Assembly (NCBI RefSeq): GCF_028641065.1
Contig: NC_073401.1
Coordinates: forward strand, 14,136,001 to 14,200,000
Length of the DNA stretch: 64,000 bases
Direction: 5' to 3'
DNA from: Leucoraja erinacea
Taxonomy: Eukaryota
Numbering within the stretch: the stretch's first letter is position 1; each line of letters starts with the position of its first letter. The translations under genes and the position numbers were made by a program. The notes under the pieces are model-generated. The model made no database searches. It saw only the letters and a list, made by a program, of their open reading frames with translations, and had not been told where the DNA came from. Of this stretch, positions 18,320 to 40,794 are shown piece after piece.

Positions 18320-19586
18320 ATCTAGACACAGCTTCAGAAGGCTATTTTGCCAGTGTTATAGGGCCGCAAACTGTTCATATAAATTGCTGAAGGCTTCATC
18401 AAATGATGAACCATCAGCTCACCTGCCTCTCTATCTCCCCCACTGATTTATTTGTCTGTCTGCAGAATGCAGTCTTCCCACTCAGTCTTCGTCAACCTTC
18501 AGCAGTCTCTTTTCACATCTGGAATGTGTCTTTATAAGCTTGTTTTAAACAAAATAAGCCAGACTTCCCAGTCTTGGAGATCGGCCTTCAGTTTAGTGTG
18601 GAGAAACAGGCCCTTCGGCCCACAGAGTCCAGGCTGAGCAGTGATCCCCTAGTTCTATTCTACATATTAGGGACAATTTACAGAAGCTGATTAACTTACA
18701 AACCTGCACTTGTTTGGGAGGAACCCGGGTGAAAATCCTTGCAGTCACATGGAGATTGTATAAACTCCGTACAGACGGCCCCCGTAGTCAGGATCAAACT
18801 CGGTTCTCACGTGCTTTATAGCAGCAACTCTACCGCTGCGCCACTGTGTGAAAAAAGGTTCTGACTGTCTATCCTATCTATGTCTCTATAATTCAATGTA
18901 CGTCTATCAGGTCTCCCATCAGTTTTGCTCCAGAGAAAACAATCCCAAATTTGTCCAACCCCTTATAGCTAAAGAAAGGGTGAAAAGGGTGAAAAAATGA
19001 TTTAATTGTCAATTATTAAAAGATAAATATCTACCGTGCAGTGTGCAGCAATACTAGCATGAGTGACATTGTCTGTCATTTGGATTTGAACTTTTCAAGT
19101 ACCTTGAGTCCTTGGATGATGCTTGAACCTTGTGAATAACACACATGCTAAGAGAGGCATTTGAGCTAGTGTTTGAATTTTTTATCTACAGTAGATGTAA
19201 TCCACCAGTTCAAAGTCCTCTACAAATTATGCACTAGCTGTGCTTGTTATCAATATTAGTCCCGGATTAATTTTGTCAAAGACTTGCCCATATCTGGAAT
19301 GAGCTGCGAAAATAAGATGTAGAACTGTGGCCAATTCTGATTTTTAAAAGACATTTGAACCAATATGGATAGGATGGGTTTAGAGGGCTATTGGCGAAAT
19401 GCATGCTAAATATGCTAACTTAGTTGGCATGGACAAGGTGGGCCGAAGGGCCTGTTTCCCTGCTGTACAGCTCTATGACTCTAATTGAGACCATTAAGAA
19501 CAGAAAAATTGGAAGTAAAGGATCACAGATGATGTTGGTGATTCATGAAGTTGGAATTCAGCTTTTCACTTTTTTCTATGTTCCAG

Positions 19587-19685
19587 AGGGCAGCAGCTGC
19601 TCAGAGGGAAGTGGAGAGTCTTCGAGAACAGTCCGTAAATTGCTCCATTCACCTCGACTGTCATTCTCCACGGATTGGGGGAGTG
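19587..19685 (+). CDS. CUX2: CUX2 coding exon
   Basis: ttccag|AGG...GTG|gtaag; RAAAAQREVESLREQSVNCSIHLDCHSPRIGGV. Confidence 0.92.
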
Positions 19686-20823: not shown

Positions 20824-21781
20824 ATCAATGTAACTGCAGGCAAGTATAAAATATTGCACAAGATACTTCAGAGACAGGTTTACAAAAATCACAAACTGCT
20901 TGAATATTGTGAAGTCTTCTGCAGTAGACCGGGGCTGTCCATCTCACTCTTAATTCTTGCGTGCAACATTTTACATAGTGCTGTAGTAACTCAGTGGGTC
21001 AGGCGGCATCTATAGAGAACAAGGATTGGTGAAATTTTAAGACGGGACCTATCCACCTGACCTAGTCAGTCTACTGCAAAAGACTTCAGTATACTCAGCT
21101 TTTGGGGTCAATGATTAAAAGGTCAAGAGAAAGGTCAAAGAGTATGGGATCATCAGTAAAGATGAAAATCCAGAAACCATTTTTAAAATGTGGTGAAATG
21201 GGGGAATAACCGTAGGAAGCACAGTGTAAAATAGAATGTGCTCGGTCATTTAGGGGCAGCACAATGGCGCAGCGGTAGAGTTGCTACCTTACAGCGCCAG
21301 AGATTCTGACTGTCTGTACGGAGTTTGTACGTTCTCCCTGTGACCAAGTGGGTTTTCTCCTGGAGTTGCGATTGCCTCTCACACTCCAAAGACGTACAGG
21401 TTTATAGGTTAATTGGGTTCAGTAAAATTGTAAATAGTCTCTCGTGTGTGTGTGATTGTGCCAATGTAGGTGAGACTCGGTGGGGCCGAAGGGCCAGTTT
21501 CCGGGCTGTAGCTCTAACGTCTAACATTTAAAGTCATGCTGCTTCTGACGTGATCTTGCGGTCCGATACTGTTCTTCCGTATCATTTATTTGATGATGGA
21601 TGTCAGTAGTTGGAACATGTTTTCTGATATTTAACTGTTTGGCGATAAGAAATGTAATTGGAGGCACAATAGTAGCTTTTCCTTGAGTTGGTTTTTGACC
21701 TGTTCATGTGTTTAAGGCCCCGCGCTGGTATTCTAATTCATAACATTACCTTTGGCAGTGGCCACAAGATGTTGTCCCTAG

Positions 21782-24700
21782 ATTTTACTTCGGAGTCACG
21801 TGAGTGATTCCGTGAAGACCCCAGCTCTACTGTGCATGCGACATAATCGCACAGCTGTGCAGAACGCGGCCAGCGGGAGTCGGGCTAGCTCCCGCATCCA
21901 AGGACGAGAGGTAAGTACTTACCTTAATCGGGCCTTGTGGTTTTTGCTCCAGGGGGAGCAAAGTAGAGAGGCATGGTGAGCGGCCCCGTTTCGACTCCAG
22001 CGTGGAGCCGACAGTGGACGGGGAAAAGGCGCTACCCGGACCGCAAACGCTGCGGACCGCTGCAAGGAGCTGCGCTAATGCCGGTCCGCTGAACAGCTGT
22101 TTGGTAACAGCAGCGGACCAGCGGGAAGTTTAAAAACCCGACCGGCAGCCCTGCAGACTCCTGACAAAGAGAATCGCCGCCCGGGAACCGCCACAATGCC
22201 GCCTGGAAAACGGCAGGCAGCCTCTACATACAGGTAAGAGAAAAATCTTCCCAATTCAACAGGTTCTACAGGAGCCAACTTCCTCCAAAACTGGAACAGG
22301 TTGGAGACAGCAAAAATAAGTATGTCTGTCTCCCCAAGCCAGAGGAGGTCATGGAGTTCACCTCCAGGAAAGGGGCACTGGCTGAATGCCAAGGGAGCTG
22401 ACTCCTACCCCAGTGCTATTGCACTAGCCATCTCCCTTGGCGAGGGATTGATGCAACAGCGGAGTTTGAGCTATGCCTCCTCCAATTTATAGCACACCCT
22501 TTTGCTCCCTCTTTTGAGGCTAGCTAAGGAGGCCAGGGCTGGGCTGGCTTAAACGCTGGGCAGGCGGACGAGAACAGCAGTATGCCAGGGGAGCAGGATC
22601 AGGAAGAGCTACTGGGTGTCGTGGGCCACTACATGGCTCCTCCACGCGACCATCTTCCCAACAAAGCCCTGCAGGAGCAGGCCTTTCCAGAGGCAAATCC
22701 GCAGGCAGCTGGGTCAGCGGACTCGCAGACAAGCAGCGAATTCTACAGAAGGGTCAAGATGTTACCGCCTTTGCTCGTTTTTTCCACGGATTATACTCTC
22801 CCAGGATGAGACTATCCCATTGCACTACCAGGGTGCTGACGCCTAAGATGTTCCCAAATTTGGGATACTCGACTGAACAATGGTGCATATAGACCTGCCC
22901 GCAACCCCAAATATATGGGGCTATGCAAACCGCTGCTGCGGGAAGAGAGGCAGCTAAACCTGTGCGCCTCATGAAGGCAGGCCATGGAACGAGCAGGACA
23001 TCGCATCCAACACCCAGCTGGCAGCACCCCTCGGCATCCACCAGCGATATCAAACAAGGACTGGTGAAAGCCTGGCGACCGCTTCACATTACCCCCAAAG
23101 TTCTTTTTAGACGGGGCCTAGAGCGGAGCCGTGGGAAGATGCGCCGCCCCACCGACAGCACCAGCATACCAGCAAACTACGCCTTCATGAAAAAACAACA
23201 AACATGGAGGTAGGTAGTCTGGTTCCTCCCAGTTTACACTAAACAAGGGTGTTCTACTAACTGCGGGGGGGGGGGCATTTACACTTGTTAATAAAGCATG
23301 GGATGCTGTCACAAATAACTAAAATATACTCAACAGTATTAGAGGATAAAAACAAATTCAAATTGGGCATATTACCGCCAGTTCAGCAATGCGCCCAAAG
23401 GGCACTTTCTCCCTCTAAGAAAAGAGAAGTGAGAAGGTCAAGCTGAACTAGAAAGGCTCATTACTAAACGGATCATGGGAGTAAACATGAACCATTGGAA
23501 ACTACAAAAGATGGTGAATGTAGCATCATCATTGATCTAATATCACTAAATAAATCTGTTGAGTATATATACACTTTAAGATGGAGATGGGTTTTTGTCA
23601 CTGTCAGGCATCTGATCTCCCAAGGATACCTAAGGGGAGCATTGATATGGAAGATGCTAACTATCTTATACCCATACACTAAGATCATTATAGATACCTA
23701 AAAATTTTACCTGGATAATGGATATCCCGGTTAGGGCAACCATGGAAGCACAGAGCAGTCCCTATGGCCTAACCTCAGCCCTAAACTATTAAATATTAAA
23801 ACGGCCATGAAAATATTAAGAAAACAAGCATAATCATGGCATATATTGGATGATATCCTCATATTAGGGGAAACAAAGGAATTAGCTGTGGCAGCAGTTC
23901 TAGCTACGAAACAGCTCCCTAAAGCTCTGAGGTTATCCCACGCCCAGATAAACCAGAATTGAAGCGTTAACTACCAAGGATTATCTGGGCTTCAATAATA
24001 ATTCCGTCCATATCACTGTTACTTTGCCAAGGTACTTGGGCTATATCACAACTAAGGTGGTGGGTAGACATCTATTTGGCATAGTTTTCAGCCCTATTAT
24101 CATCACCAATCCCAATTTGGTTATTAAAAACCGATGCCAATACTTTAGGCTGGGGAGCAACTAAACTCCATATCCAGCACAGGTAACAGATGGACCAATT
24201 CACAAACATCGTTACTACACATACCGGGCATCAACTACTTAGGATTGGTGAGCGTCTATTGGGCTAAAAAGCATATGCATTTCAAATGCAGCACGTACAT
24301 ATGTGGTTACGGATTGATAATACTATGGTGGTGGCTTATATCAACCATATGGGGAGCATAATAATCATTGTTGTGCATCAAATTGGTCAAACAAATCTGG
24401 CAATGGTGTGTCAAAAGACATTTTAACTATCAGCTGCCTATGTCCTAGGAAGCTAGAACACAGTGGGAGACACCAGGTCACGGGGTAAAATTTATGATTA
24501 CATTGAATAGATGTTAAACCCAAAATATCTGCTAAAGGTATTAAGCAGTTTGAAAGCCAGATATCAATTTGGTTGCACAAGAAGGAATCACCAGTAACCT
24601 ATGTATGTGACTTGGGAACCAGATTAGAGGCAGCAGCGATAGATGCCTACACGCTGGAAGGGGGAATTTCTGCTTTGCCTTCCTCCCTTCTGCCTCATCA

Positions 24701-26440
24701 GACGGGCACTTCGCAATACAGATGGGAGTCTCCGAGATATTGAACGTGCCCGACCGGCCTACACAGCCATGGTTCCCAGTTCATCACGACACGGTGGGCG
24801 AGTCACCTATGGATTTCCCTAGTGGACCATGGTTGCTGACTCAACCCAGTATCAGGCACAAGCCACCCATGCCAGGGAAACATCAAACTCCTGGGTGCAG
24901 GGTTTCAATAGACCTTACCAGGGACTGGGATTATCCAAGGGACCACCATGTCGGCATCCCTGCGAACAGTCAGTAAAAGCTAACATGGGTAAAATACTGC
25001 CACGACGCAGGGACAACATACCGAACTATTCAACCACTGACGTATTGGAGTTCCTGGAACATCTACACCATGACCAAAAGGTGAGTTACAATGCCGTAAA
25101 TACAGCATGAAGCGCCTTATCTGCTTATCTAAAACAGCATGACAGCAGAGCATGGGATCCCATCCACTGAAGGTAAACTTATGAAGGGCAACTATAATAT
25201 AAGCCCCAAACACCCAGGTATATACCCATGTATGGGATATTGGTGTGATATTGACATATCTCAGAGAATGGCACCAGCCAGATCCCTCAGCTTGCTTAAT
25301 CTATGTTTTAAAAAACGCTCATGCTTATGGCTCTCGTACACGCTCACAGAGTCCGGTCACTCCATAAACTAGACTGGATAACATGGTGATGACCCCAGAC
25401 GCATCACGTTCATATTTAGGTCTGGTAAAATCTAACTCGCAGGTATATGGGACTAGGCGAGATTATGAGTTCGGCACGAACTAGTAGGGTCGAGATCGCC
25501 TGTGTTTTCCGTGCTGTAGTCGTTATATGGCTATATGGACCAGGAACGCCCAATTCACTGGTGGGATTCCGGGCCTACCCACCAGAGTCCAGGTTGAGTG
25601 TGGTGACCCATCTACTACTATATATAGACACAACCCACAATCTTAGAGGGAGAGGAAAGCCTATGGGTCAACCACAGTAACCCAAGACGGGGTACGAGCC
25701 AAACCACTCCAAGGTGGCTCAAACAGGTACTGAAAGCTGCCGGAATAGATAATAATACATTTAATCCCATTCCAATAGGGCAGCATTGGTATCAGCGGCT
25801 GAACGAATGGACATCCCGGTTGACCACATTTTCAATACAGCAGAATGGTCAAGGGAACGGCGTTCAGAACATTTTTTATTATAAACCGTTGATAAACCTG
25901 ATTTAATTGCAGGAGAATATTACAAACTGCAATATTAATTTAAGCTCAGAGGAGCTCTTTTATGTTGTTATTGTTAACAAATACCTTTCTGTTTCTTTTG
26001 AAAGCAGATCCACTGGTTGATTACGATAACACTTCCTCATAAACTTCGGCAGTGAGTGAAATAAAAACTGTTACACGGTTTGAAATCACAGACCTTTGAA
26101 GTCTTCACGGAATCACTCACGTGACTCCGAAGTAAAATAGTAAGATTAAACGAGTACTTACCAGTATGAAGTTTGATCTGTATTTTATGAGGAGTTACGG
26201 TGAGGGATTAAGTGCCCGCCGCTCCCACCCTCATTATATAGATCAAACTAATAAATTGATGTCTCGTGATCTTTACTATCTTACTTCAAATATTGTGTCT
26301 ATCCTGTGATTTCACACCGCTGCTTCGAAGTATGCCGCATGCGCAGTAGAGCTGGGGTCTTCACTTAATCCCTCACCGTAACTCCTCATAAAATACTGAT
26401 CAAACTTCGTACTGGTAAGTACTCGTTTAATCTTACTATT
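21782..26440 (+). mobile_element. DIRS1-type tyrosine-recombinase retrotransposon, full-length, ORFs decayed
   Basis: Left end 21782-21845; right ITR 26331-26364 plus extension to 26440; ICR 26101-26214 complementary to both ends; remnants of RT (IMAY/LDDILI ~23833), RNase H (TDANTLGWGA ~24130; LRIDNTMVVAYINHMG ~24307), MT-like (VPDRPTQPWFP) and YR (HSNRAALVSAA ~25768). Confidence 0.93.
26101..26214. repeat. DIRS internal complementary region (ICR)
   Basis: 26101-26138 is the exact reverse complement of 21782-21819; 26136-26214 is the reverse complement of 26362-26440 with 2 mismatches. Confidence 0.95.
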
Positions 26441-27751
26441 AAATGCTTGGTGATTTTGGACATTTTAGCCCTTTGTATCAGCATCTATCTAAAACATTAA
26501 GACGTTTTATCTGAAACATTTCCAGATTTAATAAAACTGGCATGATCCATCTCCTCTTAAGAAACATTATATGCCAAGTACTCAATAATTGCAAATACAT
26601 TTTAATTAATGTCACATCTTTGTAAATGAAAACTGATCCAACATTATGATACTTGAGTTAGTTGACCACAGCTATTTATTCCAAAGTTAAAGATCCAGCT
26701 GAAAACCAGAGCAACTTTGCACTTTTTTCCTAAACAACGGACTGTGCATCAGCAGAATTAATTATCAGAACTCGACCAGTGCACAGTGGTGCAGTTGGTA
26801 GACCTGCTGCCTCACAGCACTGGAGACCCAGGTTCGATCCTGACTCGGGTGCTGTCTGTGTGGAGATTGCACGTTCTCCCTATGACTGTGTGGGTTTCCT
26901 CCGGGTGCTCCGGTTTCCTCTCGCATCCCAAAGATGGCGTGTTTGTAGGTTAATTGGCCCTCCCTAAATTACCCCTAGTCTTTCAGGAGTGGGTGAGAAC
27001 ATGTTGTAATGTAGAACTGGTGTCAACAGGTGATCAATGGTTGGCATGGACTCGGTGGGCCGAAGGACCTGTTTCATGCTGCATATCTGAACTAAACATA
27101 GTAAACTGAACAGACATAACTAAGTCTGTGTTAGTAACCTGTTGTAGATCCAGTTAGCATGGCCCTGATAACCAAAATAATTTTATTTCCAGTGAAACCT
27201 CCAGAAAGTCATGCATCCAATAATAAAATCTGCTTGGGATGCGTGACTGCATTTTAAACACGTCAAAGCTACACTGGCTCTTAATAAAGAAAGCATTCTT
27301 CTCTGCTGCTGCTTACCGAACACAATACGTTTCCAATTTTCTTTAATGATTAAATGCCTTGACTGCTGATTTTAAGCTTCATCACGACATTCAATAAACC
27401 CATTTTGTGTATTTCACTTTTTTCTAAAGTAAAATCATTTTTCTATAAACCTAAGTGTTATTAAAATAGGTGACGTTCGTAGCAGAGAAATTAAACTTTT
27501 AAAAGCAAAGTTAGTTTTAGCTAGGTTTGGTAATTGTTCCATGGTTTCCAATGAATTGTGAAAGACAACCTTGCATTGAAGTGAGCGCTCACAGGGTAGA
27601 GGATTCTAAAACCAGAGGATATAGGCTTAAGGTGAGAGGGGACTTCAGGTGCAATGTTTTCACTTGGACGTTTGGACAGGTATATGGACAGGAAGGGTTT
27701 AGAGGGCTATGGGCCAAATGAAGGCAAATGGGACAAGCCCAATATGCCAAC

Positions 27752-28709: not shown

Positions 28710-28901
28710 GATCAGGCCAATGTTCTGATGTGTCCCGGTTCGAGACTGGAGGCAGCGTTGGTTGCTAAGGACCGGGAGATTATCCGGCTGTTGAAAGAGG
28801 TTCAACACCTGCAGACTGCCTTCCATGACCTTCAGGAGAGTTCGGCAAATCAGGTTGCAGAGTTGGAGCAGCAGCTAGCACTGAAGACGGAAGCTGTGGA
28901 G
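28710..28901 (+). CDS. CUX2: CUX2 coding exon (coiled coil)
   Basis: ctctccag|GAT...GAG|gtgatt; DQANVLMCPGSRLEAALVAKDREIIRLLKEVQHLQ...LALKTEAVE, 192 nt. Confidence 0.93.
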
Positions 28902-29448
28902 GTGATTGCCTTTCATGTAGTCTTTGTAACTTAAATAAAGTTCTAACGAAGTGGCCAGGAAATATCTTGTCAACAGCCTCACCCACTCTAGTGAACTAGT
29001 CATCAGATCCTTTTTTGATCTCTGGGATATTGGACACACAAGAAACTGCAGATGCTGGAATCTTCGGCAAAACAAAGTGCTGGAGGAACTCAGTGGGTCA
29101 GGCAGCATCTGTGGAGGGAATGGATTGCTGATGTTTCAGGCCCAATTACTTCTCTTGACCCAGAACCTCGCCTATCCATTCAATGGTGCTTTCAACTGCA
29201 CCATGAAATTATTTTTGCATATTTACTCATGCAGGCACCACCATGTTTTGGCGCCATTTCCAGAGTCCGGTCCGCCCATGCGCGCAGTCTACAGGAGCGG
29301 ATCCCGATCCAGGCAAACCCCAGGCTCCTGCAGGGCCTTCCTCTGTCATCCTCGACCGAATGGGCCTGCAAACAGGCATCATTTTCTTCCCAACGGCCAT
29401 CTGTGTGTCCTGGGGCGCCTCCTGCAACCAATCTTGAAGCCGCTAGAG

Positions 29449-38535: not shown

Positions 38536-38612
38536 AATTGGATGCACGTGTGTGAGTGAAATTGTGCCAGTGATTGAGGTCGGTAATTTAAACCTCTCCT
38601 TGAATTCTGCAG

Positions 38613-39281
38613 ATGAGGTACAACCTGAAGATGGTGCCAGGAAAGCAGCTGTGAACAATGAGAAGGATGCCTCGAGTGTTGATCATGCATCACCAGCCCC
38701 TCAGCCAAGTCCACATTGGTCCCGAGATGAGCAAGCCTCTCCAATGGCCATCCCAACACAAGTGTCAACCCAAGGACCAGAACCATCAGGAGCACTCCCC
38801 CTCTCTCCAATCCCCTTGATCAAAGCAAGCGATAAGTCTTCTCCAGAGCCTTTGCATCACAGGCCACTGATGTCTCCCTTGTACTCGAAAGAGGCTGTAA
38901 ATACTGTGGTTTACCCGACTGCACTCTACTCTGCTAAGGGAGCGCTAATCATAGGGAGTAGTTCTAGCAACAGTGAAGCTACCCCACCAAGTGACCAGTC
39001 AGAGGGCAGCGGCTCAAGTGCTGGTGATGACGAACATGTAGAGACAGCTGACATTGCTTTTCAGGTTAAAGACCAACTCCTAAGGCACAACATTGGACAG
39101 CGTGTGTTTGGACACTATGTTCTGGGGTTATCACAAGGATCTGTCAGTGAGATTCTTGCCAGACCTAAGCCATGGCATAAGCTTACAGTTAAAGGGAAGG
39201 AACCTTTTATTAAGATGAAGCAGTTTTTATCTGACGAGCAAAACATCCTTGCCCTTCGAACTATTCAAGTGCGGCAGAGAG
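38613..39281 (+). CDS. CUX2: CUX2 coding exon containing CUT repeat 1
   Basis: tgcag|AT...AGAG|gtatgt; [80 protein letters not shown]. Confidence 0.97.
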
Positions 39282-40794
39282 GTATGTACACGGGCTTACG
39301 CCAGTTTTCTGTCTGATTGAAACTTGGAGTAATAAGATCTGAGAGTTGAAAATAAAGTGCTGGAGGAACTCAGCGGGTCAGGCAGCATCTTTTACTTTAG
39401 ACTTCAAATATACAGCAAAGGAAACAAGCCCTTCGGCCCACCGAGTCCATGCTGACCGGTGATCACCCCATACATTAGCACTATCCTACACACTAGGGAC
39501 AATTTACAATTTTACCGAAACCAATTAACCTACAAACCTGTCCGTCTTTGGAGTGTGGGAGTGAACCGGAGCACCCGGAGAAAACCCATTCACTCACAGG
39601 GAGAACGTACAAACACCTTACAGAAAAGACCCGTAGTCAATATCGAACCTGGGTCTCGGGTACTGCAACTCCTCAGCTGCACCATTGTGCTGCCCCTAGT
39701 CCTTGTGGAGGGAATGGGCGGACAACATTCGGAGTGGGTGCCTTCTGATGGTTTAGGAGAGAGAGCTGGTAGAAAGAGGTGAGAGGAAGGGGTGGGGCAA
39801 GAACTGGCAAGTGATAGGTGGATAAAGGTGAGGAGGGGTTGATGGTCAGATGAGATGGGTGGGGATGGTAACCAAGGCTGGACGAGGTTTAACAGTGGAG
39901 ACGACAAAAGGGTGTGAATGGTGGAAACAGATAAAGAAGGTGAGGAGTGAAACATAGAACTAGAGGGAGGGGTGGTGACCATTCAGAAGGGCATAACAGA
40001 GGGGAAGAAGCCTGAGTCTGGTTGTGTGGACTTTCAAGCTTCCCTAGCTTCTGCTCGATGGGAACGGGGAGGGAAGAAGGAATGGCCAAACATGCTGATG
40101 GCAAGTGTAGGAAGGAACTGCAAATGCTGCTTTACACTAAAGATAGGCACAAAGTGCTGGAGTAGCTCAGTGGGTCAGGCAGCATCTCTGGAGAAAAAGG
40201 GTGGGTGACGTTTTGTGTCGGAATCCTTCACTGAACAAGACGTCCGACCCAAAATGCCACCAATCCTTTTTCTCCACAGATGCTGCCTGACCCACTGAGT
40301 AACTCCAGTACTTTGTCTCTATCTTCATACTGAGGGAAAATTTGGTTGGTATATTTTAAAATTAAAGTAACACCCGCCTGAATGAGCAGTGACCATCTTG
40401 TACACAGAGTTCATTGCATGTCTTACTGTATATGCAACTACTTGTAATCCTTCACAAAGGACTATTCAGATGGGTGTAATTTTCAATACAAGCTGTGACT
40501 CCAGATTATATGTTTTACCAGCTCAGCTGAAATCACAGCAGCACTAGGCATTATATGTCACAATGGTGGGGAAAAGAAAACATGAAATATTTTAAATTAC
40601 CCTATGTTAGATCATGCAGAAGTGGAAATCTTACCAAAGATATTGTTGAGTTACAAAACGAAACTCTTGGGGGACCTTATTCCGATCCAGTGAAGGTAGT
40701 AATTAAATTAAGCTGCGTGTTGTTGCTGTTTTGTCTTCTAATTTACATGGGTAAAGTGCAAGAAACAGTTTTCATGCATCTTTTGTTTTTGCAG

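Follow-up and report, generated by a model that had tools for sequence, protein, structure and literature searches.

The window, a 64,000-nt stretch of the Leucoraja erinacea genome, carries at positions 21782–26440 (+) a complete DIRS1-like retrotransposon of 4659 nt that belongs to a non-coding family. With high confidence, we interpret it as a very recent full-length insertion from a family whose coding capacity was lost many copying rounds ago, the copying and integration being likely due to enzymes from intact DIRS1 families of the same genome. The element would give a full-length RNA that is packaged together with the gag and reverse transcriptase (RT) of a helper, the missing ends would be rebuilt from an internal complementary region (ICR), and a tyrosine recombinase (YR) of the helper would insert the joined ends at a target ATT by recombination. 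Template switching between co-packaged RNAs would then give rise to mosaic copies and bring in foreign RNA pieces such as U1.

Structure of the element and its host intron

The element begins and ends with ATT, as the initial annotation had claimed, and the same trinucleotide is found in the copies with both ends (53 of 55 at the start and 54 of 55 at the end). The left terminus occupies positions 21782–21845 (+), of which 21782–21819 are complementary to the ICR and 21812–21845 are the conserved part of the left ITR. The ICR (26101–26214, +) consists of 38 nt directed against the left end and 79 nt directed against the right end, which overlap in the 3-nt junction, and it is followed by the right ITR (26331–26364) and the right extension with ATT at its end (26331–26440 together, +). 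The reading of the ICR as the joined ends holds: the reverse complement of 26101–26214 corresponds to the right end (26362–26440) followed by the left end (21782–21819) with one ATT shared, and 112 of the 114 positions match. The ITR pair 21812–21845/26331–26364 has the two mismatches in 34 positions noted earlier, and over 64–65 nt the ITRs are 85% identical. By structure, the element is DIRS1-like, and all tested structural features of this superfamily are present, namely ITRs, an ICR with a 3-nt overlap, trinucleotide ends, RT-RH-MT and YR, the latter two as remnants.

The host gene had been named correctly as CUX2: the exon at 38612–39283 is 100% identical to a Leucoraja erinacea protein with this name. 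The element lies within an intron on the CUX2 strand, between the upstream coding exon 19584–19685 (+, amino acids 254–287 of P0001) and the downstream coding exon 28710–28907 (+, amino acids 288–353). A very abundant short repeat, which we take to be a SINE, flanks the element at a distance in two copies (21310–21501 and 26823–27075) that are 78% alike over 83 nt.

Coding regions of the window copy

Frameshift-aware alignment to open-frame relatives places gag, RT-RH-MT and YR in this order, in line with the earlier observation of RT, RNase H, MT-like and YR motifs in canonical order but broken. The decayed ORF1, gag-like by position, lies at 22158–23175 (+) with 36–40% identity to the relatives, the decayed RT–RNase H–methyltransferase ORF at 22967–24905 (+) with 57–59% identity to their ORF2, and the decayed YR ORF at about 24790–25931 (+) with 63% identity to their ORF3. 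No open gag, pol or YR frame is left, and the window copy lacks any plus-strand frame of at least 130 amino acids. Compared with the open-frame relative L062, its frameshifts number 25 in pol and 21 in YR and its stops 7 and 3, respectively; in the comparison of indels, 63 of those in pol and YR shift the frame. None of 12 open fragments of the window copy scored over the Pfam cut-off (the best was Phage_int_SAM_4, E 0.004), and a protein search with a 92-residue YR fragment gave 27 candidates, none of them significant. Through the open-frame relatives, the interior does match RT and YR proteins, a point on which the initial annotation had made its identification depend.

Breaks common to the family

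The coding damage is inherited and family-wide. We fetched the 39 other copies that best match the 3′ end, along with 20 of the 39 further copies that score best in the RT region; both samples were picked by likeness to the window copy and describe the youngest part of the lineage. Frameshifts number 16–28 in pol and 14–22 in YR in all 39 copies chosen by the 3′ end, and 16–27 and 13–21, respectively, in all 20 copies chosen by the RT region. In the control, 20 loci of the sister (nearest) coding family, there are 1–4 frameshifts in pol. The possibility raised by the initial annotation as a refutation, that the disabling mutations are private to this copy, is contradicted by 59 of 59 close copies broken to a like degree.

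Coding relatives served to polarise an alignment of 49 copies, the gag part of which is less reliable. Each of 71 indels, 60 of which shift the frame, occurs in 45 copies or more. All 71 are found in the window copy, and the 113 singletons are all absent from it. Six rearranged or partial copies (L007, L016, L020, L029, L033 and L038) were omitted from the copy alignments. The 29-nt junction between YR and a repeat inserted in it has 423 exact genomic matches (the control has 0) and is carried by 56 of 60 close copies. The data lend no support to an unusually high indel rate on the shared branches: the ratio of indels to substitutions is 0.27 among shared changes and 0.29 among private ones.

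These data bear directly on the explanation that an autonomous element decayed after its insertion, or that assembly indel errors broke its frames. Decay in place is the usual fate of most genomic DIRS copies, and the few pol frameshifts of the sister family are private ones of this kind. However, the breaks common to the copies refute both variants; the window copy lacks singleton coding indels and has only 5 private substitutions among 34 copies; its insertion is missing from 4 other samples; and open-frame elements exist in the same assembly. We give this explanation practically no weight. The copies are young and entered the genome independently; nearest neighbours are 97–99.6% identical, and the nearest to the window copy exceed 99%.

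Stepwise loss of coding capacity

The 36-nt left end of the family has 2387 matches in the genome, from the first 100 of which we extrapolate approximately 1600 elements. For the reconstruction of earlier stages, we used 36 loci from this match list, chosen without the 29-nt junction, and added 4 loci without the YR insert; nine of the 36 listed loci (short, partial or unaligned) and, among the four added, L136, which has no left end, were omitted from the tree. Among the 27 near-full-length listed loci that remained, 26 have at least 22 breaks and 1 has 5.

Part of the loci form a nested ladder towards the window copy, whose steps share 7, 21, 36, 51 and 60 of the window copy's 70 pol and YR indels, with 3 indels non-nested, and the coding outgroups share none of them. 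A 174-nt deletion in pol at 24031 is common to the whole ladder, being present already at step 1, and a frameshift inside the RT YLDD codons (23842–23854) is common from step 2 onward.

The stem of the family is 0.276 substitutions per site long, and its changes are spread evenly over codon positions in gag, pol and YR (74/72/83 in pol), against about 60% third-position changes in coding lineages (55–73% in most comparisons). The first ladder branch shows a third-position excess in YR. On the branch from step 1 to step 2, the excess is weaker (62/48/85, p = 0.005 pooled; p = 0.065 and p = 0.14 for pol and YR apart) and suggests recombination with coding relatives or a later loss of some function; the branches after step 2 have no codon-position bias. 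CpG transitions fall short of the post-insertion rate on the stem (27 of 159 versus an expected 32%, p = 1e-5). The even codon positions together with the low CpG value favour repeated copying without coding rather than one long genomic sleep.

A long stem with even codon positions would also fit neutral decay of a long-dead copy that an active family took up on one occasion and then amplified. We consider such a single pick-up unlikely: there are multi-copy intermediates at four earlier stages with nested breaks, the ICR is still 92–93% identical to that of the coding families, and the CpG decay of the stem is too low. Shorter dormant spells between ladder steps may have occurred.

Captured foreign pieces

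Two foreign pieces were acquired along the ladder. At 22793–22885 (+), a captured remnant of U1 snRNA replaced part of ORF1 and later lost 38 nt. Its Rfam U1 score in the window copy is only 18.6 bits (E 0.14), whereas at the aligned place in older relatives, it reaches 84.5 bits in L134, which is over the cut-off, 64.8 bits in L144 and 64.5 bits in L122. The piece arises within ladder step 2, as it is present in L134 and absent in L137, and then decays from 84.5 through about 65 to 18.6 bits. The Rfam matches on the window element are all weak, and a match to H19 was taken as chance.

The second piece, at 25432–25531 (+), consists of about 100 nt of another dispersed repeat, presumably the 3′ tail of a LINE or SINE, that entered the YR ORF and multiplied together with the family (46 of 49 copies). 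It appears first at ladder step 3 and has 8 matches of 77–89% identity among the fetched loci; RNA loose ends are found at both of its edges.

Insertion and spread

The predicted empty site with a single ATT was recovered: contigs from 4 of 4 sequencing runs (4 samples from 3 studies under two species labels) join position 21781 directly to 26438. It follows that the empty site has one ATT and that the insertion is not fixed. Runs X3 and X4, under the second species label, also show family variants along with the empty site.

Integration occurs at a single ATT without other duplication, with a preference for A or G at position −1 (48 of 55) and for A at +1 (41 of 55). The flanks are all different among the 40 copies listed, and the ends are exact. 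These observations, together with the empty site, are against a spread by DNA-level duplication or gene conversion in place of retrotransposition, which we regard as very improbable even though recombination among copies is evident and two copies, L038 and L039, were seen as a head-to-head pair. Conversion may be behind some of the mosaic copies.

The length of the family stays near 4.7 kb (median 4713 nt, 55 copies) because losses are partly offset by gains. Among the paired terminal matches listed on contig C1, 29 of 32 are at least 4.2 kb apart. Internally deleted short elements with both ATT ends were each seen once: L130 (713 nt), L141 (1105 nt) and L148 (1760 nt). No sibling of the 713-nt derivative was found in 40 scored of 1032 candidates, which is a single and weak case. 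The head-to-head copies L038 and L039 (G000:C1:9543454-9553968) are about 400 bases apart.

Open-frame relatives and candidate helpers

Searching the genome for tyrosine recombinases yielded 96 scored matches, of which 20 were fetched at full length. In four of the relatives, L061, L062, L064 and L066, three open frames overlap one another; they measure about 430–470, 690–730 and 360–390 amino acids within 4.83–4.85 kb, and YLDD and the YR motifs are kept in all four. In the open-frame relatives scanned, RVT_1 (E 1e-17 to 1e-20) and Phage_integrase are over the cut-off, and Dam is weak (E 0.0009–0.05) and under it. This L062-type family is young, with its top 40 matches 98–100% identical, and its ICR and right ITR are 93% and 84% identical to those of the window family, the best terminal match sampled.

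The intact partner with identical termini sought by the initial annotation was not found among the sampled relatives: some have open frames and similar termini, but the best ICR is 93% identical. Being young and the best terminal match, the L062 type is the likeliest candidate helper among the sampled families, and we think this role somewhat more probable than not. A better helper may be present among the remaining YR matches. The interior of the window copy is nearer to the sister family (75%) than to the L062 type (71%); the sampled copies of the sister are all broken. No recombinant of the window's own family with the L062 type was seen among the copies sampled.

The earlier conclusion that this is a non-autonomous lineage that moved after coding decay is supported by the common breaks, the RT and YR remnants, the single-ATT empty site and the open-frame relatives. 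Its original argument, based on termini kept better than the ORFs, has to be dropped, because two coding families also match the ICR of the window copy at 92% while matching its pol and YR at only 61–72%.

Two further groups of broken elements were observed. In one of them (L115, L118, L125, L131 and L132, G000:C1), 43 of 57 indels are common within the group, but the window copy has only 4 of them. This second lineage is a recombinant, with a gag region 89–94% identical to the L062-type family and a pol–YR region from another broken group. The borrowed gag is the best hint of broken and intact RNAs meeting in one particle, although in a lineage other than that of the window copy. The other group (L116, L121, L142 and L150–L153) has 22–33 indels in pol and YR, about half of them common (11 of 23 in L121), and is probably an older non-autonomous lineage.

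Concerted change of the ICR and termini

Across subfamilies (55 copies), 6 sites covary between the ICR and the matching terminus, changing nearly always together, and 3 sites covary likewise in both ITRs. The mismatch of a copy between its own ICR and terminus is 1.56, compared with 3.5 between copies (none of 10,000 permutations was as low). Such covariation is a prediction of the ends being rebuilt from the ICR in every cycle. This replication model, with rebuilt ends and a circle, comes from Cappello, Cohen and Lodish, as cited in PMC7192593 and PMC3266345.

Both ICR mismatches of the window copy are at sites that separate subfamilies, and they look like mosaicism rather than decay. The ICR and the right end of one copy have different subfamily haplotypes at 2 sites in the window copy and at 3 sites in L019. 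Strict copying of the ends from the element's own ICR would not give the two conflicts of the window copy; candidate readings of the conflicts in both copies are template switching, copying of another molecule's ICR, or later conversion. Recombination among copies of the family is evident, and four-gamete conflicts rise with distance from 10% to 22%.

In Dictyostelium DIRS-1, according to PMC7192593, the ICR is essential, RT works in trans, and a truncated test element gave 0 scored insertions; the cDNA there is mostly linear and single-stranded, and PCR for the circle junction failed. The initial annotation had tied the ITR/ICR layout to circular intermediates and to YR integration at a trinucleotide: integration at a single ATT stands, and the circle is a model, here as in Dictyostelium.

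Comparison with known systems

The skate element resembles the DIRS1-like retrotransposons surveyed by Piednoel et al. 2011 (PMC3266345) in its ITRs, right extension and two ICR halves that share the 3-nt junction, in its ATT ends, which are the commonest there, and in the order gag, RT-RH-MT, YR with overlaps. It differs in being non-coding and in its length of 4.7 kb compared with 5.2–6.3 kb in the table entries consulted; the words "non-autonomous" and "nonautonomous" are absent from the main text of that survey.

As general background, TOC1 of Chlamydomonas has split direct repeats (PAT-like) and is not known to have ITR/ICR ends, and Morgane and BARE-2 keep degenerate coding sequence. TOC1, which PMC9940879 calls a non-autonomous DIRS retrotransposon, resembles the skate family as a retroelement of the tyrosine-recombinase kind whose movement does not depend on enzymes of its own, but the passage on it describes no ladder of decay. 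SIRE of Trypanosoma cruzi, in the account excerpted from PMC6681497, is likewise a non-autonomous partner of a YR retrotransposon (VIPER); unlike the skate family, which keeps about 97% of the helper length, it is truncated to about 435 bp and has direct repeats. LARD, TRIM, TR-GAG and Morgane, as treated in the relevant part of PMC10794571, are also non-autonomous parasites of an autonomous retrotransposon. These elements use LTRs and a DDE integrase, whereas the skate family, found in a vertebrate, relies on a tyrosine recombinase and on ends rebuilt from an ICR.

Non-autonomous YR retroelements are thus already known (TOC1, SIRE), and in the literature searched we found no earlier report of a full-length one of the ICR type. 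It held no full-length, ICR-type, multiply frameshifted non-autonomous family, although repeat databases (Repbase, Dfam), subscription journals and supplements may list such families; the portions of PMC9210276 and PMC8498967 consulted mention no non-autonomous DIRS1.

Trans action of DIRS enzymes has so far been described in one laboratory system, in which, according to PMC7192593, a truncated test element did not complete a scored cycle. The skate family provides natural evidence of an ICR-type element carried through whole cycles, many times, with all of its genes defunct. For the old model of replication and integration, the single-ATT empty site and the joint change of ICR and termini amount to a test on genome data.

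It should be noted for annotation that many stops and frameshifts do not make a DIRS copy old: the window copy has more than 60 frameshifts, yet it is missing in other individuals. A wider generalisation, which we put forward tentatively and with more doubt than conviction, is that ICR-type DIRS1 elements are hard to shrink, because near-full length or internal signals are needed, so that their parasites stay at about 4.7 kb and cycle with dozens of frameshifts. Dead-frame lineages would have arisen at least twice here; they may make up a large share of the DIRS copies of this genome, and domain-based annotation would miscount them as old decayed copies. On this reading, the ladder would document in nature how the DIRS reverse transcriptase errs, switches templates and captures RNA.

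Transcripts and splice-like motifs

Coverage of the element by reads from 3 raw RNA runs is low and bidirectional, and the reads frequently continue into the flanking DNA. The depth drops after 26197; this drop may be due to the ICR hairpin or to double mapping, and hence we claim no transcript end.

Splice-donor-like motifs are present on the sense strand in the leader (21910–21952, +) and in the right extension (26415–26421), and could have a bearing on the capture of U1 or on CUX2 splicing. The leader motif is kept in 14 of 14 aligned elements, and in the window copy, it forms part of an extended 14-nt palindrome, with an acceptor-like run behind it. The leader donor precedes its own complement in ladder elements and in the second broken lineage.
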